Shown one piece after another: positions 1 through 55,084 of a stretch of DNA of 64,000 bases; the first letter of the stretch is position 1, and the number at the start of each line of letters is the position of its first letter. Origin of the DNA: a virus. A model generated the notes under the pieces. That model was not told the DNA's origin, ran no database searches, and saw only the letters and a list, made by a program, of their open reading frames with translations. Made by a program: the position numbers and the translations under genes. The DNA is taken from positions 32,001-96,000 of the IMG/VR virus record IMGVR_UViG_3300018080_000105. One strand, given 5' to 3'.

Positions 1-455
1 GACAAAGAATCCTGCAGACTCAGACTGGCATACTTGTGCCCGTCAAGCGAGTCGTTGTCGGTGCGAGCCGGGTGAGATGATCCAGGATCATCTTTGCCAC
101 CCTTGTAGTCGTCCTCTGTCCCAGGGTCTTCCCCGGTGGCCGACTGGTTCGTGCCGATGTTCAGCTGGACATCGTCCTGCTGGCCAGGCTTAGCATCGGA
201 AGCCTGATTGACTCCCGGAGCGCCCTGGTCTTTGTTGACATCGGCGGTGTGTTCGGATCCGCGAGAACCTTCCGACGCTTCCTGGCCGCGGTTGTCCACG
301 TCCTTGGTCGCGTGAGTGGTTGCTCCCTGGTATCCACCGGGATCATCCGGCGTTGGGGTTTCTGCTGCTTTCTCAGCAGCAGCTTTTTCCTGGCCGTCGA
401 TCGGCTGAACGAGTTTGTTCAGAGAATCAAACAGGCTTTGGGTCTGTGTACTCAT
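1..455 (-). CDS. Scaffold-like acidic protein, 3'-truncated by the window edge (MSTQTQSLFDSLNKLVQPIDGQEKAAAEKAAETP...GHKYASLSLQD...)
   Basis: Not in the ORF track; translated manually. ATG at 455 with AAAGGAG SD, open to position 1. Directly downstream of the head protease; low-complexity acidic sequence with KAA, KAA and KYA motifs. Confidence 0.55.
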   Translation of the reverse strand, partial: MSTQTQSLFDSLNKLVQPIDGQEKAAAEKAAETPTPDDPGGYQGATTHATKDVDNRGQEASEGSRGSEHTADVNKDQGAPGVNQASDAKPGQQDDVQLNIGTNQSATGEDPGTEDDYKGGKDDPGSSHPARTDNDSLDGHKYASLSLQDSL

Positions 456-499
456 GAGTCTGTCAACTCCTTTTGACGCTGGAGCCTCCTGGCAAAGTC

Positions 500-2008
500 T
501 TAGGCTGCGTAATTCTGCAGCAAGACCAGATCGGCTGTCAACGCTAAATCGGGTTTATGGGTAGGTTGTGCCCCGAGAAAACTCAGTTGGTACAGGGCAT
601 ATTCTTCGGCCAGCTTACTCACATCACTGTTATCGGAAGCAACCTTCTCGTTCCCACTACGAAGAACAGGAGCTTCTTCCAGGTACAGTGCTGCTCGCGT
701 CACTCGATCCTGCACGTGTGCCGGATGTAGTGAGAAGTGGCTGGCCAGCTTGGCTGCCCACGTCTCGAACCGGGGCGGTGCGACGGCAACTGACGGTGCG
801 TAGTGACTTTTCTTCACTCGCGCCGGCAGATCTCCCTTCTCCAACATCCGTGTAAAGATCCCCGGGAGTTCCCGGGAAACCAACGCTGACACGGTCGCCG
901 CTTTCTCGTGAGAGATATCGGTCGTGGCAGCGAGGAACGCGGACACTGGAAGGCAGATCTGCTGATCTGCCATTGCGCGCAGAGCGTACGCAAACTTATA
1001 GCGGAACTGTGGAGGCAGTTCCAAGTCAGCGTCCTGCACAGAGTCCCGAAACGCTAAGGCAGAAGTCGCCGACAGCGTATTCGGATCCTCGTGTATCTGG
1101 CTTTCTCGGGCGGCCAACAGGTAGGCCGTTTTGATCAGATGCTCGACTTCTTTGGGATAATCACCCTGCAGCATCATTTCGATTGGTTCCACAATGCCCA
1201 TCTGATGGGCCAGCTCGGCGCTCTTAATCACACGCCCATGAACGGCGGCGGATTTCTCCAGAGCGCCCATCACATAAGCGATGCGGTCAGCCGGCCGGTA
1301 GACGTTGCTGATATCGAAGAAGCTGGGTTGTGGGTTGTCAGCGTGCAGATGGTGGATACCGCCATCAATCTCGATCAGCGACCCAATGTTGTCGCGAAGC
1401 CCACCAGCTTTGCACATACCACCCTGGTAGGTCCCGGAACAATAATCAGCAGTAGTAGGAGCCACGTTCGCACAATACGAACAAACGTCGTGCGGAACGG
1501 AGCAGGCCATTGAGACAGCGATCTCTTTGTTCGCTGCCAGCTTTTCCATCTCACGATCAGCAATCAGCCCGCCGTTACGCCGGGCCGCGGCCTCGTTAGC
1601 GTTGAGAGCGACCAGCAGTTCGATCCGCTTCATGGGATCATGCCATGCAGATTTAACCACACGGCCGTAGCTCTTCTTGGGATCTTTGTTCTGATGGTTG
1701 CGATAGAAGCGAGCGAACTTCTCAAAGGTCGGGTGGTACTCGCGACAAACAGAAGCACGGAACCCATCACCGTTACGGTTCGGCCCGTAGAACTCCGTGG
1801 CGCCCATTGCCAACATGTGGACGAGCACCTCGTCGGACGCCACCTTCTCGCGGATACGATCAATGTCCCGGAGCAGGTCGTCAGAAGCGCGCTTCACGAA
1901 CGCATCACGGTCGCTGCCCGTTAGGCCGCGACCTGTGAGTTTGACTTCGCTTACCACGGGCTCGTCGTAATTGAGCGAGTCCGGAGTGACAACTTTGACG
2001 ATGCTCAT
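500..2008 (-). CDS. Prohead/maturation protease (assemblin/HK97-like serine protease) with Cys-rich insert and long helical C-terminal region
   Basis: NHQNKDP..GRVVKS (His), VSMACSV (Ser) and FFDISNVYRPAD match the caudoviral prohead protease pattern H...S...(E/D)xSxVxxPA. CSYC..C..C cluster follows the Ser. Confidence 0.7.
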   Translation of the reverse strand: MSIVKVVTPDSLNYDEPVVSEVKLTGRGLTGSDRDAFVKRASDDLLRDIDRIREKVASDEVLVHMLAMGATEFYGPNRNGDGFRASVCREYHPTFEKFARFYRNHQNKDPKKSYGRVVKSAWHDPMKRIELLVALNANEAAARRNGGLIADREMEKLAANKEIAVSMACSVPHDVCSYCANVAPTTADYCSGTYQGGMCKAGGLRDNIGSLIEIDGGIHHLHADNPQPSFFDISNVYRPADRIAYVMGALEKSAAVHGRVIKSAELAHQMGIVEPIEMMLQGDYPKEVEHLIKTAYLLAARESQIHEDPNTLSATSALAFRDSVQDADLELPPQFRYKFAYALRAMADQQICLPVSAFLAATTDISHEKAATVSALVSRELPGIFTRMLEKGDLPARVKKSHYAPSVAVAPPRFETWAAKLASHFSLHPAHVQDRVTRAALYLEEAPVLRSGNEKVASDNSDVSKLAEEYALYQLSFLGAQPTHKPDLALTADLVLLQNYAA

Positions 2009-2019
2009 AGTTTCCCTCG

Positions 2020-3030
2020 CTAGTTCACGCCACTGCTGAGAGCCGTACCAGCGTTCCGGTAGGCGTTCGTCAGGTCGCGGCCAAACATATAGTTGCCGAG
2101 CAGGCCGACGCCTGCGCCCATAAGTCCGCCGCCAATTTTCCCGCCTATGCCGCCAAGTCGCGGGGTGTATCTACCCACACCTGTACGAGGCGCCAAATGT
2201 CCTGGCATCGCAGACGTACCAGCTCGCAATCGTTCCGCAACAATAGAATTCGGGCGTACGCGTTGCCGCAATGCCTTCCGCTCTGCTTGTGATTGTGAAC
2301 TGTAGCGGTCAAGGTCGCGCTGTGCCCTGTTCGGCAGCGCCGCTCGACGCTTTTGCTGTTGATCCCGAATATACTCTTGCTGAGCAAGCATGGTTTTCTG
2401 GTCACGCAAATTTTGCACGTTGCGAGCTTCTGCCGGATCCGGTTTATTGCCGAACAACTCTTCAACATTGTACTTGCCAACTGCCTGCCGAACTTTACGC
2501 GTATCATGCACGCGGTCAGCTACGTGCCCAGCCGCTGCGCCCGCCGCACCACCTGCCGCGGGCATCCCCCAATCAGTTGCCATCGCCAAATTACTTTCAG
2601 CAGTCGGCGACAATCCGGCCTCGTCTTGATAAGTCTCAGGCGTTATCTTATCGCCAGTACCCGCAGCGTCGAATCGACGCTGCACCGATTCAGGAGTCTC
2701 GATCCCTCCGTTATTGTACTTACGAGGTTGCTCACGAACCCCGGGAGCCTGTCGCTGATCCCACCAGTTCTTGCCAGCAGCACCAGACGCGCCAACGCCC
2801 GCACCCAGCAGCGAACCCAGGATCGCATTACGGAGCCATCGCTTTTTCTTACGCTTGCTCAGCGCACTTGCCAAGAGCCCGGTGCCAAGGCCGACACCGC
2901 CACCAATCAACGCAGAGCGACCCACATCGACCGCCTGCTTCTCATGGCCCACACTAAGCACAGCCTGGATTGCCACGAGACGTGACGCGTCATCAAGCGT
3001 CAGTATATTGGGGTCAAATGATTGAGGCAT
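2020..3030 (-). CDS. Putative virion/ejection protein with Gly-zipper hydrophobic segments and K-x-A motif
   Basis: Start reassigned to ATG 3030 (MPQSFD, AAGGAAG SD). EKQA then ALIGGGVGLGTGLL, AILGSLLGAGVG and IGGGLMGAGVGLL. Confidence 0.6.
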   Translation of the reverse strand: MPQSFDPNILTLDDASRLVAIQAVLSVGHEKQAVDVGRSALIGGGVGLGTGLLASALSKRKKKRWLRNAILGSLLGAGVGASGAAGKNWWDQRQAPGVREQPRKYNNGGIETPESVQRRFDAAGTGDKITPETYQDEAGLSPTAESNLAMATDWGMPAAGGAAGAAAGHVADRVHDTRKVRQAVGKYNVEELFGNKPDPAEARNVQNLRDQKTMLAQQEYIRDQQQKRRAALPNRAQRDLDRYSSQSQAERKALRQRVRPNSIVAERLRAGTSAMPGHLAPRTGVGRYTPRLGGIGGKIGGGLMGAGVGLLGNYMFGRDLTNAYRNAGTALSSGVN

Positions 3031-4402
3031 GTTGACTTCCTTGTGAGAGTGCTGCCTGATCACGAAGTTTCTTGTCGGCGTCAAGGATCTGATCCTGCTC
3101 GAATGTGTCGAGAGCGCCCTGCTGGAGCTTCTTCCGCAGAAGACTCTGTACCAGCATCCGCTGCCCGGCAATGTTCGGCGACAACTGCACCAGATCGTTG
3201 TATGCGTCGGTCACTTCCGGGGCATCGTAGCCAGAAATAACCTCGTCGTTCAACATGAGGTCCTGCAGAGTGGCTTGCGAATTGATTGCCCGCATCTGCG
3301 CCTCGTGCTCAGGATCGTGCAAACTAGCCAATGCCCCGCTCACCCGTTCATCTTCCGACGGCCCGCCCAGCTTCCCGAGACCTTCCGCAAGGTTAGTCGC
3401 GGCAGAGGCTCCGATCAGCGTCGTAAAGGGGTCCATCGACTGCTTTTCCCGCTCGTCAGATGATGAACCCAAGATCGAAGGGCTGACGAGGGGTTCCACG
3501 AAAGGGGCCAGGTCGTGCTCCTGATGGGCAGCCGCAGCCTTATTGGCTTCTGCCAGCTCGCCAGCAGCGATTCGGACATCTTCCGCAGCTTTCAGGACAC
3601 GGTTGACGATCGTGAATGGCGCCTCAGTGGCGTCCAGGTCATCGACAGTTACCGGAAAGGCGTGGCGGCCGGGACTCAGCACAGAGTGACCCAAGTGGTG
3701 GTCTGACAGCTTGGTCAGCCCCGGGTTGACGCTGATCAGCTCGTCCATGACCCGCTTGCCTTTGTTGCCGTGCATCAGCACAACTGCTTCCTTCACAACC
3801 GGAATCGGGTGAGCACCCGGCCGGCGGAAGTAGTCAGTCAGATCGTTGAACGCACTACCCAGTTCATCGAACGCACTGGCATGCTTGCGGCGAGCATCGT
3901 CACAAGCCCACTGCAGCCGCCGCTGTTCGTTGAGTACCGGTCGGAATTCGTTCTTCTCAGATGGCAGGTCTTCCGCCTTCTTGATCAGCATGTCACGAAG
4001 TTGCGACCACTCAGGCAATGATGCCTTCTTCATCAAGCGATGCCGCCGTTGCAGCATAGCTCGCGGACTATAGTTGTACTCCGAGGAGACCACCGTATCG
4101 ATCACAGAGGCTGAGGCCTCTTTGGTCTGTGGCGGGTACAGCGTGTGCTTGACCACTTGCAGGTCTGCCAGCGGGAACTCCGCGCGCTTCTGCAACAAGT
4201 CTTCATTGCTTTTCCGCTGGTGAGTCGTCTGGCCGACGTTGTACGCGTGCACAACCAGGTCGAGTTCTCCCGGGCGCAACTGCATCTCGCGAGCAACCTT
4301 GACGATTGCTTTGTTCGGATCTTCTCCGGCAAGCACGGCATCGGTGGTATGCGAAATCGCATCCATCATGCGTCGCTCTGTTTCCGGTGCGATCTTTTTC
4401 AT
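3014..4402 (-). CDS. K-x-A-rich helical virion-associated protein, function unknown
   Basis: 462 aa ORF in the head module; about 10 of 26 Lys are in K-x-A (manual count). Confidence 0.65.
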   Translation of the reverse strand: MKKIAPETERRMMDAISHTTDAVLAGEDPNKAIVKVAREMQLRPGELDLVVHAYNVGQTTHQRKSNEDLLQKRAEFPLADLQVVKHTLYPPQTKEASASVIDTVVSSEYNYSPRAMLQRRHRLMKKASLPEWSQLRDMLIKKAEDLPSEKNEFRPVLNEQRRLQWACDDARRKHASAFDELGSAFNDLTDYFRRPGAHPIPVVKEAVVLMHGNKGKRVMDELISVNPGLTKLSDHHLGHSVLSPGRHAFPVTVDDLDATEAPFTIVNRVLKAAEDVRIAAGELAEANKAAAAHQEHDLAPFVEPLVSPSILGSSSDEREKQSMDPFTTLIGASAATNLAEGLGKLGGPSEDERVSGALASLHDPEHEAQMRAINSQATLQDLMLNDEVISGYDAPEVTDAYNDLVQLSPNIAGQRMLVQSLLRKKLQQGALDTFEQDQILDADKKLRDQAALSQGSQHASII

Positions 4403-26456: not shown

Positions 26457-28121
26457 TCACCTTAGTCCAAGAACAGAGCCAGTTACACCGCGAATCATAC
26501 CGCCCCACAATCCCATGTTCTGCAACTTCTTCTGGGCTTGTGGTTTGAGACCGCCAAGAACTCCAAGAACGCCACCCGCGATATGTGCCGTCGCCAAATC
26601 CACGCCGGCTGTCGCCAACCCGCGAATGAAATGCCGCGGCGACAACATCGACGGATTACCATGTAGTTGCTGCACGCCGGTAACCAGTCCGGAAGCAGCC
26701 GCTGCGTGCATCGGTGGAGTGTGGCGACCAGCATCACCCCAAATTGCACGATTAAACGCGTCAACCGGGACAGACTGTAACGCTACCCCGCGACTGCCCG
26801 TGTACCCACTGGAGTTCACTGCGCGTTTAATTCGGTTGACACTTTTCTCAAACTGATCGGACGCTGTGAGTCCCAACGTGTCGAGGTAATCCAAAGCCTG
26901 CTGCTGCGCGCTGGCCTTGTAGTGATTCATATAATCAATTTCGCTCGGAGCGATGTTCTGCTGCGTGACCGGCTGCAGGAATGACTTCCGCCACTGCGGC
27001 TTCCCGGTCGCGTTCTGGTTCATCTGTGCATTAGCCAAGCCTTGTGGGACATGTAAAGCCGCGCCGCCAAGCCCGCCGAGTATCGCCAGGTTCCGTCGCA
27101 GTTTACCGCGTTCCAGGTACTCTTCTGGCAGCAACTGCTCAGCAAGCCAGCCACCGCCGTAACCCAGCCCGGCGCCCAGCAACCCAGACACGATGGAGTT
27201 GGACATTGCCGAAGGCCCACCGGTCAGCTTACCCGCCGCACGGTATGGCAACCCCAGGTACTCCAGCGCAGAGGCTTTCTTGACCATGATCCAATTATCA
27301 GAGTCAGACGGGCCAACCTCAGATTCGGCGATGACTTTGTCGACCCCGTCGATCGAGTTGACGGCTTTCTCCCACTGCTCATAAACCTCTCGGCCGTCAG
27401 AGTCACCAAGCACGATCCACGCCGTCTTGTTTTCCGGATGCCAGTAAACGTAACCGTAACCAGGCATAGCCGGCAGATCTTTAATCGCCGTCTTTAGGGC
27501 GTCCCGGATGGCAGCCGCGAGCTTTAAGCGTTGGGTGACAAGTGCCGGGACCTGTCGCCACAGCGACAGTTCGCCCTTTTTTTCGATGCGTTTGATAGTT
27601 TCATCAGCCACGGTTTTCCATGCCCTCCTGGCGTCTACTGCGCGGTCGTCGAGATAGAGGTCCGCTACAACTTTGTCTGAGGCATCTTCCGGCTGGTCTG
27701 GGTTCTCGTTGATATGGTCGAACGGAATATCGTGTTCTTCCAACCAGCTGCGAACCAGTTTTTTGTCACCACGCACCGTGTTAATGATGATCTGATAACC
27801 CTCGTCCCGAAACCGCTGCATACTCTTCTTGGCGCCCGGCCTCGGCTTCTCGATCTTCTTCGGATCGAACTTGTCGTACATCGAAGCTAGCGTGCCGTCG
27901 AGATCTACAGCCACTGTGGGGAGTCGGTCCGCACGCGACTTCCCCGCAGCGGACTTTCGTCGCCCATCCAACACAGCACTGAGGCCGTCCAGCGGCAGAG
28001 AGGCTTCGGGGGTTTGTATGATCGTGGATAGTCGCGACATTGCGTTTCCCATGACTCCATGGCCTCTTTGAACCACTTCCAGAAAGCCGCGATCGCTCGC
28101 CGCCTTTGTTTGCTTCTCCAC
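26457..28121 (-). CDS. K-x-A polyprotein: HAD-family phosphatase domain + unknown domain + Gly-zipper membrane-like region
   Basis: VAVDLDGTL (DxDxT) and DLYLDDRA (motif IV); K-x-A at domain boundaries; SIVSGLLGAGLGYGGG and LAILGGLGGAAL. Confidence 0.75.
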   Translation of the reverse strand: MEKQTKAASDRGFLEVVQRGHGVMGNAMSRLSTIIQTPEASLPLDGLSAVLDGRRKSAAGKSRADRLPTVAVDLDGTLASMYDKFDPKKIEKPRPGAKKSMQRFRDEGYQIIINTVRGDKKLVRSWLEEHDIPFDHINENPDQPEDASDKVVADLYLDDRAVDARRAWKTVADETIKRIEKKGELSLWRQVPALVTQRLKLAAAIRDALKTAIKDLPAMPGYGYVYWHPENKTAWIVLGDSDGREVYEQWEKAVNSIDGVDKVIAESEVGPSDSDNWIMVKKASALEYLGLPYRAAGKLTGGPSAMSNSIVSGLLGAGLGYGGGWLAEQLLPEEYLERGKLRRNLAILGGLGGAALHVPQGLANAQMNQNATGKPQWRKSFLQPVTQQNIAPSEIDYMNHYKASAQQQALDYLDTLGLTASDQFEKSVNRIKRAVNSSGYTGSRGVALQSVPVDAFNRAIWGDAGRHTPPMHAAAASGLVTGVQQLHGNPSMLSPRHFIRGLATAGVDLATAHIAGGVLGVLGGLKPQAQKKLQNMGLWGGMIRGVTGSVLGLR

Positions 28122-28255: not shown

Positions 28256-28325
28256 GCTTTCTCCTGAATAAAAGGATCGTCAGAAGTGCGGCGGGGCAAG
28301 TCTACCAGATCACACGCAGATGCCG

Positions 28326-29243
28326 CTATGTGCCTTTTCGAGGCCGCTTCTTCGGAGTCTTCTTCGGAGTCTTCTTCGGAGTCTTTTTCCGTGGTGGAAT
28401 TTCGGGAACTTTTCGCTTTGGACGTTTCTTTCGCTTGGGTTTCTTCAGTACGTGTTTTGGTGCCTTCTTTTTTCGCTTTTCATTCTTTCCCTCCAACACG
28501 TCCTGCCGGCCACGGGCTCTTTTCTTCCTGCGACGCGGACCTTTTGGTTTACCGTCCGGATGATCTTCCTTCCACAGCACCTTCTCTTCTCTCACCATAG
28601 GCGTCTTACCATCGACGTCGACTGGAATTGGCTGTTCCTCAATCGACGGCAACACGGGAAGATCATCGAGGTCAATCTCCGGAGGCACAATCACTCCGTT
28701 CCGAATATCTTCAGCAATCTGCATGTGAGTGTACGGGTACTCACCGTTCTCGGCTTTCCACTCGTCGTGAACTTGTTGCACAAGATCAGGCAACAACGCC
28801 GCAGAGCCATTGTTGTCGATGACAATGTCACAGTCTTCCGGACGAATTTGACAAGAGTCCACATTCTCCGGCGGATGACGTTGCGACGCATCAACCCAAA
28901 TGGACACATCCACCAGACCGATATCTTTCAACGCCTGCAACTCAGCAGTGCGGCGGATGCCTTCAAGAATGTCATTCTCTTCCAGCATGTCAACGTAGAG
29001 TGTCAAACCGCTGGGCTCGTTGTACTGCCAGATGATGTCGGCCCACTCGGCACGGTGGTTGTGGCGATCATCCCAGCACTCCTCGATGCTCTGATAGCCG
29101 TAAACCGACTTCAAAGTCTCATAGACGACACGTGCCGCGCCTTCGCTGGTGGATTCTTTGTACGCAAGGCCACTGATGCTGGAAAGAATTCGTGCTGTTG
29201 TACCTTTGCCGTGCCGGCCGTAGCCGCAAATCGCAACTGCCAT
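28326..29243 (-). CDS. P-loop (dNMP-kinase-like) protein with a histone-H1-like basic C-terminal tail
   Basis: ICGYGRHGKGTTA Walker A; tail ...KKPKRKKRPKRKVPEIPPRKKTPKKTPKKTPKKRPRKGT. Confidence 0.7.
   Translation of the reverse strand: MAVAICGYGRHGKGTTARILSSISGLAYKESTSEGAARVVYETLKSVYGYQSIEECWDDRHNHRAEWADIIWQYNEPSGLTLYVDMLEENDILEGIRRTAELQALKDIGLVDVSIWVDASQRHPPENVDSCQIRPEDCDIVIDNNGSAALLPDLVQQVHDEWKAENGEYPYTHMQIAEDIRNGVIVPPEIDLDDLPVLPSIEEQPIPVDVDGKTPMVREEKVLWKEDHPDGKPKGPRRRKKRARGRQDVLEGKNEKRKKKAPKHVLKKPKRKKRPKRKVPEIPPRKKTPKKTPKKTPKKRPRKGT
28347..28382. repeat. 3 x 12 bp tandem repeat CTTCTTCGGAGT (encodes TPKK x3)
   Basis: Seen directly in the sequence. Confidence 0.9.
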
Positions 29244-30371
29244 TTATCGCACTCCCTGCAGGAAACGGTCCAATGGATGATGCACCAGTGGCTTCCGTTG
29301 ACCTGACAGGTATGAAGACAGCTGACGCATGGAACGATCTGGATCAGCAGCATTTGCCAGCCGATCCTGTGCGGCAGCCTCGCTGATTGCTCGGTCACCG
29401 CGATGCTTGACCGCCCCCACATGGTTTACCAGATTATCGAGCACTCCGCGAGTGTGGTCGTACTGAAACGGAGTCTGATTGATTGCATTCATGTAGACGC
29501 TGCCGGCCTGCTTGGGTTCGCCGTACGGTTTTCCTTTGTACTGGTACTTCAACGGCCCCAGCACATTAGTTGTACGAACATAGTCAGCCGTCAGCTCCTC
29601 GCCAGAGACAATGTCTCGCAGAGCCCGCATCTGGACATACCCGTCACCTTTGACAATTTCAGTGTTCGGACTGTCCGAGTGATTGGTGTAACGAGCGTCA
29701 TCTGATTGTTCATAGACGTGCTTGCCGTCTTCGTTATCCGGCAAAACTGTCATCAGGCGATCAACGATGATGTCGCCATCGCTGAACTTCTGCGCAGCGA
29801 ACAAACCTTTACCGTGAATAGCCGACTCCCCCACACGGACGGACCTCGCGGCCGCCTTTTGCATGTGGATCATCGACGGCTGTCGTCGTTTCTTCTTACG
29901 GATAGCAAACGTCACATGGAACGGATACTGCGGCGGGCCGAGGCCCAGGTTACGACGAAGCTCCATCAGCCCCGGCGACTTGGCTTCCAGCGCCCAGCAC
30001 TTGGAAACACCGTCCCACGTATGCGGTGTGATCTTTCGGACCACGCCCAGGTTGAACCCGAACATTTGCCCGCGTTCTTTGATCCCGTCCGGGCCGCCGA
30101 TCGATTCCAACTCTTCAGGACGCGCCACAGAGATGTGAGCGTTGTACTGCCCGCTGGAGTCCTGTTTCGGTTGCTCGACCCCGGGTTCGTCAAGAGCCTG
30201 AAACGCACCATTCCCGATTGCATTGGGAACGTCAAGCAAAAGCCATCCAGAGTTGGAAAGGTACAGCTTCCCTTTCATCGCATATGACAGCGGGGGACGT
30301 GCGTCCGCCTGTTTATCTCGCTGCGACAATAGAACAGCCGCTTCCCCGATATCGTATAACGATGCAGACAT
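29244..30371 (-). CDS. K-x-A polyprotein: 2H phosphoesterase domain + SET lysine methyltransferase domain + C-terminal helical domain
   Basis: AHISV and FHVTF (2H HxS/HxT pair); ESAIHGKGLFA..RYTNHSDSPN..ALRDIVSGEELTADY (SET). Confidence 0.85.
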   Translation of the reverse strand: MSASLYDIGEAAVLLSQRDKQADARPPLSYAMKGKLYLSNSGWLLLDVPNAIGNGAFQALDEPGVEQPKQDSSGQYNAHISVARPEELESIGGPDGIKERGQMFGFNLGVVRKITPHTWDGVSKCWALEAKSPGLMELRRNLGLGPPQYPFHVTFAIRKKKRRQPSMIHMQKAAARSVRVGESAIHGKGLFAAQKFSDGDIIVDRLMTVLPDNEDGKHVYEQSDDARYTNHSDSPNTEIVKGDGYVQMRALRDIVSGEELTADYVRTTNVLGPLKYQYKGKPYGEPKQAGSVYMNAINQTPFQYDHTRGVLDNLVNHVGAVKHRGDRAISEAAAQDRLANAADPDRSMRQLSSYLSGQRKPLVHHPLDRFLQGVR

Positions 30372-51901: not shown

Positions 51902-54900
51902 CTAGTTGAGGATCAGAAAATCGTAATTGAGCGGGTCGTTTTCATATTCTCCGTCTACTGCCCGTTCTGCAGCTTCCGGGTCATCAAAGCGCCACTCCAA
52001 CTGACAACTGTCGTACTGCTCACACGCGTCAGTCAGCACCGTTGCCCCGGGAGTACCCTCCGCGTTGTCCCCCAGGTGATCCCAGCCACCATCCCAGAAC
52101 CCGACGCCGTGACCGTTGCGTGTCATGTTGAAAGCATGACCGGCCGCAGATTCACGGTTCTCGAAATACTGACAGTGATCCTGGTAGAAACACCAAGCGT
52201 CTCGCAACACCGCATAGAAATCACCAGTCGACGCGACGGCCTGCGCAGCAATCTCCAAGTTTGGATCCATGCCGAGCAACGGACAAGTCGAGTCATCGTT
52301 GTCGTCATTACCGCAAACCGCAAATGATGCCAAGCTGTGAATGTAGCCGTCCCAGAATGCGTTGAACCCGGGATCATCCGTCAACATCAGCAACGGCAAT
52401 CGAGGATTGTCTTCGATGCTGATTGCCCAAGTGTTATCGTCAAATACCAGCGTAATCCGTGTCGTACGATCCACTGATAACGCACGCAACAACCCGTTCT
52501 GGCACGACGGGTCAGTCCACAACCCAGCATCCCGACCTGCTGCGGCCCTCCAGAACATTCGGCCGTTCTCAAACGGAGTCAAATGCACACTGGGCATGAG
52601 GTGTTGATACCGGTTAGCAAACGCACACACTTCGTCGCACAACGGGTTGAACAAAGGTTCATCCGAAAACAACCCCACAACAGCATCCGCCGCATCATGG
52701 TAACTATCCTCCCAATCAGCAAACCGGCTAGGCAGCCTCTCAGAGATATGAAACCCAAGTTCGTACAGATATCCTCGCAGAAAATCCTGTTCAAACTGCT
52801 GCATCCGTTCAGCCACAGTTGACGGGTCGTCTGCCAAGAGCTCGATCGTAGGGTATGACGACTGCATCAAGACCGGAGAGCTTGGCTGTTCAGCGTAACG
52901 CACCCAGAAGGGCTGAAATTGTGTAGCCCAGATTTCCCGCCAATTTATGCTACTTTCCTGCCACAAACGGGCATTCCATTCATCAATATCCGGCGTACTG
53001 ATGTGATTCCTCGCATAGAAGAACGACATCCCGACATCGTGCAAATGTAAGTCATGATCGAGCACATCTTCTGCCACACTCTGGTAAACAGTCATGCACT
53101 CATCGTGGATCTCCTGCAGCAAATCAAAGCGGATCCGTCGCAGGGTGTCGAACAGGAACGCGCGATTACCATCATCAGATGGAAACACACGTTCGTCATC
53201 TTCGTTAAGCACATGTAACTGCATCGCTGCCAGGTAGCCGTCCATGAACACATGATAACCCGGAAGGTTACCATTTGATGGATACTGCGATCGACACAAC
53301 ACCGCGGCAGGCACCTCAGTTACCGCCCGAGGGTACACGCGCAACCAGCAAGAGCTGTAGGAAATCGTATCCGGTGCCGCCTGCCCTGGCATACCAGTCA
53401 TCCATCCCTGCACCGGCCAGTTGTTTTGCATGAGTGCCAAAACATACCCAGCCTGTGCCGGGTTTGAAACCTGGCCCGGCCGAGTAAGGTCCGCCGTCGC
53501 CACCTGCTGGATGTTTGCCAACACGGCTGCATCTCCCGGCGAACAACTCACACGTCGAGTGACGTAGTGCAAAAACTCAACGTAGTTGATCGTACGAAAA
53601 TCAATTTCAACATCAGGAGCCACCACTGCCGTCACCATCAGCCCCATCACGTAACCATCCCAAGCCATCCTCATCTCAGACGTTTGCATCTCAGACGGGT
53701 AATACCTCATGAGGCCTGTTGCCTGGTTTGCATCCGGATGCGGACACTGTCGCAGTGTCAGCGCGGTCCAGTCGTTACCCTGCCCGTCGACTTCAAACCA
53801 AAATGGTGCTTTCGTCCACGCCAGTTCACGCAACTGCGTGATGTACAGTTGCTCGTACTCCGGATTCTCGGGCAGCGTGATACGGTTCAGAAAAGAGCAG
53901 AATGCCATCCCGTAATAAAAGTAGGTGCGATCAGGCGCCGGTTCTTCTGAATGCGTCAAAACTTCAAAGCCCTGCCGCAACAGATCAACCAAATCCCTCA
54001 CCGCCTCATGCTGCTCCAGAAACACCATAAGCTGACCCTCATGGTAGCGCAAATTCAAATAATCCGCATCTACCAGTCGCACAAGGCTACCGTCGTAGTT
54101 GCGGGTCAGCGTCCCCGTCGCCTCCAGGAAACCTCTCGCAAAATCTACAAAGTCAGACGGTCGATTAAAAATCTGTGCCTGCTCCTCCACAGTGCGAGAG
54201 TAATACTCCAGCGACGTCTGCCACTGAGTCGCTGCCGGCGCTGGTGGTTCGTTCATGTGTTGCCGCTCGAAACCAGCTCGCGGAGAACTGACTTCACTGA
54301 CAATTTCATACACCACCTCTGCGTCCGGCAAAGCTGGATGATCACCGACCCTCGCCGCGGCGAGAACGATTCGCCACTGGGGTTGCTGCGCCGCCCAGTT
54401 AGCAATTCGCAACCGCACATCCGCAGGCAGCGTACCTACCCGCGTCGCCAACGTATCGCTAATCATGTGATCTTCTGCGTTCAACGCCCATGCGGCCGCG
54501 GCCCCGAACAACCACTCCTGTGCTGCTGGAACATTTCCCGCACACCGACTGCAGTAGTTCATGAAAAACGTCCGCTTGTCTTCGAGAGTTTGGTTGTGCT
54601 CTAAGTAGCTCTGCACCGTTTGGCGACGGATATGAGGATCAGGTATCGCCCCGAATCCCTGGGCCTGCGACGCGACAACCCACAACCCGGATAAGAACCC
54701 ATGAAACGCTGCGTCAAACGACGAATCACCATCCGCCAGCATTGGCGGATCCTCGTTACCAAAAACCTGTACCGGTGGAGGCGGATCATCCACCCGTCGC
54801 ATCTCTGCCGGAGCCGGCATCAACAGCACCGGATGGGCGGGGTATCGCACACCATCTGAAAGCTCCACTTCCATCGTGGGCCGCTGCCCGTCAATTGTAT

Positions 54901-55084
54901 GCCCGTTAGGGCACCGCCGTCTCGGTGTCGTAGCCTTGAAGACCGCTTGGCATTCCTGGCAGATGTACTCCAGTTCAGGATGCGGCAGCGGTCCTCCGTG
55001 CAGAAAGCGTTTGTACTCAGCCGGGTCAAGCTGTTGTCGGTGCATCGCCAACCCGATCAAAACATGTTCATCAAGTCGGGGCAT
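51902..55084 (-). CDS. 1060 aa acidic protein: N-terminal Zn ribbon + six diverged helical repeats; only 4 Lys
   Basis: CQEC..CPNGH; repeat anchors FHGFL/ARGFL/WDGYV/MDGYL/LRGYL/WDGYI; last unit carries AGHAFNMTRNGHGVGFWD. Confidence 0.8.
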   Translation of the reverse strand: MPRLDEHVLIGLAMHRQQLDPAEYKRFLHGGPLPHPELEYICQECQAVFKATTPRRRCPNGHTIDGQRPTMEVELSDGVRYPAHPVLLMPAPAEMRRVDDPPPPVQVFGNEDPPMLADGDSSFDAAFHGFLSGLWVVASQAQGFGAIPDPHIRRQTVQSYLEHNQTLEDKRTFFMNYCSRCAGNVPAAQEWLFGAAAAWALNAEDHMISDTLATRVGTLPADVRLRIANWAAQQPQWRIVLAAARVGDHPALPDAEVVYEIVSEVSSPRAGFERQHMNEPPAPAATQWQTSLEYYSRTVEEQAQIFNRPSDFVDFARGFLEATGTLTRNYDGSLVRLVDADYLNLRYHEGQLMVFLEQHEAVRDLVDLLRQGFEVLTHSEEPAPDRTYFYYGMAFCSFLNRITLPENPEYEQLYITQLRELAWTKAPFWFEVDGQGNDWTALTLRQCPHPDANQATGLMRYYPSEMQTSEMRMAWDGYVMGLMVTAVVAPDVEIDFRTINYVEFLHYVTRRVSCSPGDAAVLANIQQVATADLTRPGQVSNPAQAGYVLALMQNNWPVQGWMTGMPGQAAPDTISYSSCWLRVYPRAVTEVPAAVLCRSQYPSNGNLPGYHVFMDGYLAAMQLHVLNEDDERVFPSDDGNRAFLFDTLRRIRFDLLQEIHDECMTVYQSVAEDVLDHDLHLHDVGMSFFYARNHISTPDIDEWNARLWQESSINWREIWATQFQPFWVRYAEQPSSPVLMQSSYPTIELLADDPSTVAERMQQFEQDFLRGYLYELGFHISERLPSRFADWEDSYHDAADAVVGLFSDEPLFNPLCDEVCAFANRYQHLMPSVHLTPFENGRMFWRAAAGRDAGLWTDPSCQNGLLRALSVDRTTRITLVFDDNTWAISIEDNPRLPLLMLTDDPGFNAFWDGYIHSLASFAVCGNDDNDDSTCPLLGMDPNLEIAAQAVASTGDFYAVLRDAWCFYQDHCQYFENRESAAGHAFNMTRNGHGVGFWDGGWDHLGDNAEGTPGATVLTDACEQYDSCQLEWRFDDPEAAERAVDGEYENDPLNYDFLILN

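Follow-up and report, generated by a model that had tools for sequence, protein, structure and literature searches.

A SAK-family phage polyvalent protein with predicted 2H phosphoesterase and SET methyltransferase modules separated by K-x-A joints

Why would a virus place a 2H phosphoesterase and a SET lysine methyltransferase in one polypeptide, and why should each of them stand between K-x-A motifs? We addressed this question in a stretch of 64,000 nucleotides (the window), which spans bases 32001-96000 of a 184-kb IMG/VR virus record with a completeness estimate of 89%. The gene at 29244-30371 on the minus strand appears in the ORF list as a 375-aa ORF plus stop. It belongs to a long run of minus-strand genes, with 5 nt separating it from the upstream gene and no gap to the downstream one. 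We searched the intergenic gaps for a common late-promoter word and found none, and a sigma-70 and terminator scan gave no signal above that of shuffled sequences. The features of the gene are the following:

29244..30371, minus strand: whole gene, 2H-SAK / SET / tail polyvalent protein (ORF list, Pfam, model with mean pLDDT 91.2)
30306..30371, minus strand: N-terminal leader, residues 1-22 (helix in both models, leader form in homologues)
29880..30296, minus strand: predicted 2H phosphoesterase domain, residues 26-164 (Pfam PF22547, conserved motifs, structural matches)
29850..29858, minus strand: K172-A-A174 joint, in the disordered linker 163-174 (pLDDT < 50)
29520..29846, minus strand: predicted minimal SET lysine methyltransferase domain, residues 176-284 (Pfam SET, KMT2B match, fold, invariant residues)
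29505..29513, minus strand: K287-Q-A289 joint, with the disordered linker 285-288 (pLDDT < 50)
29247..29504, minus strand: C-terminal helical tail module, residues 290-375 (last module in many homologues)

A sequence-only reading of this locus had described a 2H and a SET domain in a single protein, bracketed by K-x-A. Pfam, AlphaFold modelling and fold searches bore this out, confirming both enzyme domains. The short strings on which the description was based are all in place: DKQA at residues 19-22, AHISV at 78-82, FHVTF at 151-155 and QKAA at 171-174, followed by GKGLFA at 187-192, NHSDSPN at 230-236, GEELTADY at 257-264 and PKQA at 286-289. The order along the protein is thus leader helix, K20-Q-A, 2H, K172-A-A, SET, K287-Q-A and helical tail. 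The AlphaFold2 model of the whole protein, built from 65 homologues, gave a mean pLDDT of 91.2 and a pTM of 0.48. Values of pLDDT below 50 were found solely at residues 163-174 and 285-288, that is, in the two inner K-x-A linkers, and the low pTM fits a predicted arrangement of independent modules on flexible joints.

Regarding the 2H domain, Pfam matched PF22547 (2H-SAK) at residues 55-160 with an E-value of 3.8e-6 and 27.6 bits, the curated cut-off being 27. The same profile scored 30.4 bits in a six-frame search of the genome, where it is present in a single copy, and it was above the cut-off in all 77 homologues scanned; scores of homologues reached up to 50 bits. The two catalytic motifs are H79-I-S81 (HxS, nt 30129-30137) and H152-V-T154 (HxT, nt 29910-29918). 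Both histidines are invariant in alignments of 15 and 53 sequences and nearly so in one of 65, and T154 is invariant or nearly so in the homologue alignments. Modelled alone, the domain reached a pLDDT of 93.5, and its best 19 matches in VIA-align were all 2H enzymes (Z from 7.2 to 4.4, about 100-120 residues each). Foldseek matches were weak, with E-values of 0.01 or worse; profiles of the domain, read up to an E-value of 10, matched neither Acb1 nor any other PDB sequence, and a PHROG search gave no match on the 2H part. From the best structural matches, all of them 2H enzymes, the weak Foldseek scores, the lack of PDB profile matches and the conserved motifs, we conclude that this is a divergent 2H enzyme, predicted to be catalytically intact from the conservation of its motifs.

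The sequence-only reading had compared the domain with Acb1, the phage 2H enzyme that degrades cyclic nucleotides of CBASS, and one could argue that it is specifically an Acb1-type nuclease directed against CBASS or other cyclic oligonucleotides. Acb1 (phage T4 57B / FBB1, PDB 7T27) is indeed the top structural match (7t27_A, Z 7.2, rmsd 3.0 Å over 102 residues), and both proteins are minimal 2H domains with a small fold and two HxS/T motifs. Besides, signal degradation has been proposed for the 2H domains of polyvalent proteins, along with RNase activity (PMC5512222). However, the next matches were drCPDase (Z 6.6), Usb1 (6.5), LigT (6.5) and MHV ns2 (6.4), and as differences below one Z unit count as ties in VIA-align, Acb1 stands level with all of them. 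The Foldseek, PDB and PHROG results above offer no further link, and there is no sequence-level relationship between Acb1 and the SAK 2H domain. The comparison therefore stood at the level of the fold, where it is shared with other 2H enzymes, and failed at the level of sequence, so that an anti-signalling role is one of several candidate activities, and an Acb1-type identity is unlikely. Other minimal 2H phosphodiesterases of viruses are MHV ns2, rotavirus VP3 and the poxvirus cGAMP PDE, and by analogy the viral origin of the protein makes a counter-defence role of its 2H domain plausible. To our knowledge, Acb1 is a free-standing protein and is not known as a module of virion cargo.

The SET part was matched by Pfam SET (PF00856) with an E-value of 1.9e-10, and at the sequence level by the SET domain of KMT2B (E 9.4e-8), with both halves covered. 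Among its structural matches were EZH2 and MLL1, both with Z 12.6, and SET8 with Z 12.0; the comparison with the minimal viral vSET gave a TM of 0.67 and an rmsd of 3.0 Å. The catalytic and SAM-binding motifs are complete (H186-GKGLFA, N230-HSDSPN236 and E258-ELTADY264). Across 15 homologues, there is no variation at residues G187-A192, N230, N236, E259 or the catalytic Y264, and hardly any at H231. According to profile, fold and motifs, this part is a predicted minimal protein-lysine methyltransferase. We found no characterised phage SET in the literature searched. A close comparison is vSET of chlorella virus PBCV-1 (PDB 3KMA), also a minimal SET that comprises some 110 residues and lacks pre- and post-SET modules; among bacterial and archaeal SET proteins, Legionella LegAS4/RomA (PDB 8SWI) provides a bacterial comparison. 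The virion of PBCV-1 contains vSET, which targets the chromatin of the host upon infection and is in this respect a functional analogue. The two differ in that the present phage infects a bacterium, which has no histones, and in that its SET domain is fused into a protein of several modules.

In order to place the protein in its family, we used a HMMER scan of 1.84 billion representatives, which returned at least 1000 cluster representatives with an E-value below 1e-3; for 257 the value was below 1e-30. The family is found in metagenomes only, and its members range from 166 to 1627 aa. Nearly all matches align just to residues ~5-165 of the query, at the N-terminus of the member, so the constant part of the family is an N-terminal leader-KxA-2H-KAA module (2H-SAK in Pfam). 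Pfam detected 2H-SAK in all 77 representatives scanned, InPase in 30 and SET likewise in 30, with SNF2/Helicase_C, LigD 3'-phosphoesterase (LigD_N), HAD-type and C39 peptidase domains as additional ones. Among seven longer members we further found NUDIX, a zinc peptidase, a DNA-ligase OB domain and an insert of the LAGLIDADG type. HMMs derived from the family alignment showed which architectures are the commonest: 75 proteins with 2H alone, 24 with 2H-tail, 17 with 2H-SET-tail, 15 with 2H-InPase-tail and 7 with 2H-SET-InPase-tail. A 2H handle with swappable domains accounts for the Pfam name 'Swiss Army Knife', the origin of which we could not trace in the literature. In cultured phages, no SAK-type 2H domain was detected when 50,697 phage records were searched by tblastn with the whole protein and with two more members of the family, and Megablast of the gene region gave no match.

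With at least two unrelated effector domains and an architecture that varies between relatives, the protein belongs with the phage-type polyvalent proteins described by Iyer, Burroughs, Anand, de Souza and Aravind (2017, J Bacteriol; PMC5512222). That work lists 2H and InPase as phage-only polyvalent domains and predicts packaging in the virion and proteolytic release of the domains, while SET is nowhere mentioned in it (PMC5512222). The likeness lies in several unrelated effector domains on one phage polypeptide, in variable arrangements. The differences are that the processing proposed there uses in-built zincin-like (MPTase) peptidases, whereas SAK proteins have a joint motif shared with head proteins, and that a fixed series in which the leader and the 2H handle precede the blades and a tail follows has no description there (PMC5512222). 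As for Pfam PF22547, the N-terminal domain fits the entry, which defines the domain only. Our literature search found no paper on the SAK family, its joints or its payloads.

The joints themselves are not numerous. The 375-aa protein contains exactly three K-x-A among 22 lysines in total, which is no enrichment (p 0.3), and the non-random feature of the motif in this protein is its placement, not its count. Among the homologues, K-x-A lies at most 9 residues upstream of the 2H start in 116/147 cases (12.2 expected), of the SET start in 37/43 (3.6 expected) and of the tail start in 27/42 (3.5 expected), where the expectation, around 10%, comes from each protein's own motif density and the enrichment is about 10-fold; as the homologues have a common ancestry and we set the borders of the domains immediately behind the motif of the query, the counts do not represent independent events. 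The motif also falls within 30 residues after the 2H domain in 130 of 172 homologues, for an expected 41.9. InPase shows the opposite arrangement, with K-x-A just before the domain in 0/45 and within 30 residues after its end in 36/39. The SET domain starts anywhere from 15 to 1220 residues from the 2H domain, yet it is still preceded by K-x-A. The control motifs K-x-S, K-x-E, K-x-L and R-x-A remained near expectation, while K-x-G, K-A and Q-x-A rose at some domain boundaries; K-x-G resembles a variant form of this site, while K-A and Q-x-A overlap the common K-A-A and K-Q-A forms. Within the joint, K and A are fixed and the middle residue varies, with V/E/T preferred before the motif and A/G/S after it. 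Conservation at domain starts could in part reflect inheritance of a cassette with its own linker. At the level of sequence, the K-x-A joints are a strong signal across the family and the lineage.

The two ends of the protein are also recurrent. The leader is an amphipathic helix at residues 5-24 in both models, which ends at K20-Q-A22 (nt 30306-30314), and a leader of the form 'IGxAxxLL...KxA(A/G)D' is present in 122/159 homologues. Unlike the disordered inner joints, the K20-A22 site is placed by the model where a helix predicted with confidence ends. Directly behind the second HxT motif, the sequence in most members is 'FHITxAVRRKxVLxxNxVS-KAA-S', beyond which they diverge completely. The tail, in which helices are predicted at 292-299, 310-342, 344-355 and 366-371, bears the signature 'DSxYxNA...HPLDRFLQG'. 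It had no match in Pfam or PHROG, and the Atlas gave generic helical look-alikes only. As the tail closes many homologues whatever module precedes it, we regard the C-terminal 86 residues as a recurrent closing module.

We then compared these joints with the lysines of other proteins of the genome. In three ORFs of the head module, K-x-A accounts for 10/19 (window positions -984..455), 13/26 (500..2008) and 10/26 (3014..4402) of the lysines, with binomial p from 4e-4 to 7e-6, while RNA polymerase, tail and replication genes of the same genome have it at background level. The major capsid protein, identified by a weak PHROG match, is encoded upstream of the window (G000 28795-29724; L003:8795-9724, minus strand). 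It has one K-x-A only, in E-K-Q-A at residues 24-27. K and A at about position 25 are kept in 120/120 listed homologues, with a variable middle residue; these homologues are 74-91% identical and contain almost no other K-x-A. This E-K-x-A is, by its position and conservation, a candidate cleavage site of a propeptide.

Cultured relatives are limited to Salmonella phage Arash and three Vibrio phages, with a capsid identity of 29%, and Arash alone among them has a virion proteome. The Arash capsid protein gp226 has V-K-E-A at the aligned position, and K-x-A makes up 10/21 of the lysines in gp220, 8/16 in gp223 and 7/13 in gp225 (L012, 138711-163598). The ORF at 500-2008 (minus strand, 502 aa) is homologous to the Arash virion protein gp222, with 35% identity. 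Its nearest named Atlas clusters are prohead serine proteases, at a sub-threshold score of 0.88-0.89, and it has no protease match in Pfam; the S77 and S78 head proteases of Pfam are absent from the genome. Known head proteases follow rules of a similar kind, L/I-x-E in T4 (IPI-III) and S/A/G-x-E in phiKZ-like phages. The processed head proteins of these phages resemble the present case in a three-residue motif common to scaffold, capsid propeptide and packaged cargo, and in a short N-terminal targeting leader that is removed at the first site; they differ in the motif, here K-x-A, which we know from no characterised head protease. By analogy, a motif common to scaffold-like proteins, the capsid propeptide and cargo looks like a head-protease rule.

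The Arash virion itself, in which the phage RNA polymerase is the most abundant protein by spectrum count (PMC10585845), tells little about the SAK gene. The Arash genome has no PF22547 match, and BLAST against it found homologues of core genes only, with none for the ORFs of 16904-45000. Given that Arash has neither the SAK gene nor homologues of this block, its virion proteome is uninformative on the block.

Because K-x-A is concentrated in scaffold-like proteins of the head module and at the propeptide position of the capsid, loading into the prohead followed by cutting is the most likely mechanism. We therefore see the product of 29244-30371 as a SAK-family polyvalent protein that is probably loaded into the head, cut at K-x-A by the head protease and delivered to the host, a proposal that we hold with about even confidence and for which we infer packaging, cleavage and substrates. 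The 'packaged polyprotein' of the sequence-only reading is plausible on indirect grounds, in view of the motif common to head proteins and the capsid N-terminus, the disorder of the linkers and the polyvalent concept (PMC5512222).

One could argue instead that this is a cytoplasmic multi-enzyme protein that is never packaged, in which K-x-A is an inherited linker, a cassette junction or the site of a protease other than that of the head, and which acts in the infected cell either intact or after processing. The neighbours of the SAK gene would agree with this, as Pfam and PHROG assign no structural function to any of them, and so would the unremarkable motif count of the 375-aa protein taken alone. 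Some members contain C39 or zinc peptidase domains, which suggest a processing independent of the head; self-processing of some SAK proteins may occur. But a cytoplasmic protein leaves unexplained why K-x-A takes up around half of the lysines in head proteins, here and in Arash, and why it stands at the capsid N-terminus, and also why unrelated domains all start just after K-x-A. We consider it improbable, with less weight than loading into the head.

Under head loading and delivery, the steps would be as follows. The leader helix and the 2H domain would form a constant 'handle' and SET a swappable 'blade', with the helical tail closing the protein. The 375-aa protein would be loaded into the prohead, where the head maturation protease would cut it at K-x-A into pieces of about 2.4, 16.8, 12.8 and 9.6 kDa. 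These would enter the host with the DNA, beside the virion RNA polymerase. There, the 2H piece may hydrolyse nucleotides or RNA ends with a 2',3'-cyclic or a 2'-5'/3'-5' linkage, such as a signal of host defence. The SET piece may methylate a protein, either of the host or injected along with it, on a lysine.

The neighbouring genes bear on these putative activities. We compared the neighbourhood with six related IMG/VR loci, in three of which the following gene recurs:

26457..28121, minus strand: syntenic partner, 554 aa, apparent HAD insert plus conserved body of ~400 aa (HAD matches, related loci)

A homologue of this gene lies directly downstream of the SAK gene in two of the loci (L006 and L010) and with one gene between in a third (L007). 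Its PNKP/LNS2-type HAD phosphatase domain spans residues ~59-183 and is flanked by KSA56 and KLA200, while the conserved body of ~400 residues is Gly-rich. The homologue in L006 is 147 residues shorter; the HAD domain appears to be inserted, and shorter homologues appear to be without it. This K-x-A-flanked insert looks like the same cassette logic as that of the SAK protein. The gene at 28326-29243 (minus strand, 305 aa), between the SAK gene and this partner, has an N-terminal half that resembles P-loop dNMP kinases (phrog_38514, E 2.5e-27) and a C-terminal tail that is rich in Lys, Arg and Pro, with TPKK repeats. As neither a homologue in the six related loci nor a paralogue elsewhere in the genome was detected, we take it for a probable accessory gene specific to the lineage. 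The Lys-rich tail had been put forward as a substrate of the SET domain; since the gene has no homologue beside the SET genes of the related loci, we rejected the tail as a conserved substrate. On the opposite strand, the ORF at 28320-29306 (plus strand, 328 aa) was rejected as a gene, being the shadow of the PHROG-supported minus-strand gene and lacking family support. It is longer than the real gene and misleads longest-ORF calling.

The same neighbours raise a further explanation, in which the 2H domain would be a 2',3'-cyclic phosphodiesterase that heals RNA ends and, together with the kinase-like protein of 28326-29243 and the HAD protein of 26457-28121, repairs tRNA cleaved by the host. 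Adjoining genes do encode 2H, kinase-like and HAD_PNKP-like domains, and relatives carry LigD 3'-phosphoesterase and DNA-ligase OB domains. However, the trio is not a conserved arrangement, as the related loci contain no homologue of the kinase-like gene, and an insertion apparently accounts for the HAD domain. Neither an Rnl2 nor an RtcB ligase was found in this 89%-complete genome, and an association with RNA ligases is noted to be always absent for polyvalent 2H domains (PMC5512222). We regard RNA repair as quite improbable, more so than an Acb1-type activity.

Beyond this single protein, loading into the head and cutting at K-x-A may extend to a wider and more speculative proposal, which we put forward only tentatively and hold to be rather less probable than the delivery of this protein. 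In a very abundant clade of ~200-kb phages, none of them cultured, K-x-A would serve as the code for cutting and loading, and SAK as a general enzyme cassette system in which K-x-A-flanked enzymes are shipped in the capsid and freed at infection. The SET domain, as the counterpart of vSET among prokaryotes, would then be the first protein lysine methyltransferase that a virus of bacteria delivers from its virion, and it might modify a protein of the host nucleoid, transcription or translation in the first seconds. If true, there would be a simple rule, readable from sequence, for the enzymes that a large environmental phage group injects with its DNA, and the resulting list would comprise phosphoesterases, pyrophosphatases, methyltransferases, peptidases and helicases. 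Their predicted counter-defence functions would be testable module by module, and, given a phage-delivered SET, one would have to ask which proteins of the bacterium lysine methylation controls in the course of infection. Since Arash, a cultured relative, shares the K-x-A motif, the proposed rule is testable there.

Finally, some additional observations were made in the family and in the window. The members P0106, P0127 and P0135 contain a LAGLIDADG insert, or a C39-like papain-fold peptidase with NUDIX or an SNF2 helicase. SAK genes also occur on contigs of 50-199 kb binned as Aquaspirillum, Alphaproteobacteria, Nanopelagicales and other MAGs (L014-L019), and the size of those with hits in 'bacterial' MAGs (contigs of 123-199 kb) suggests mis-binned phage genomes. 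In the window, the gene at 51902-55084 (minus strand) encodes a protein of 1060 aa with only four lysines, which has weak PHROG matches at its C-terminal end.
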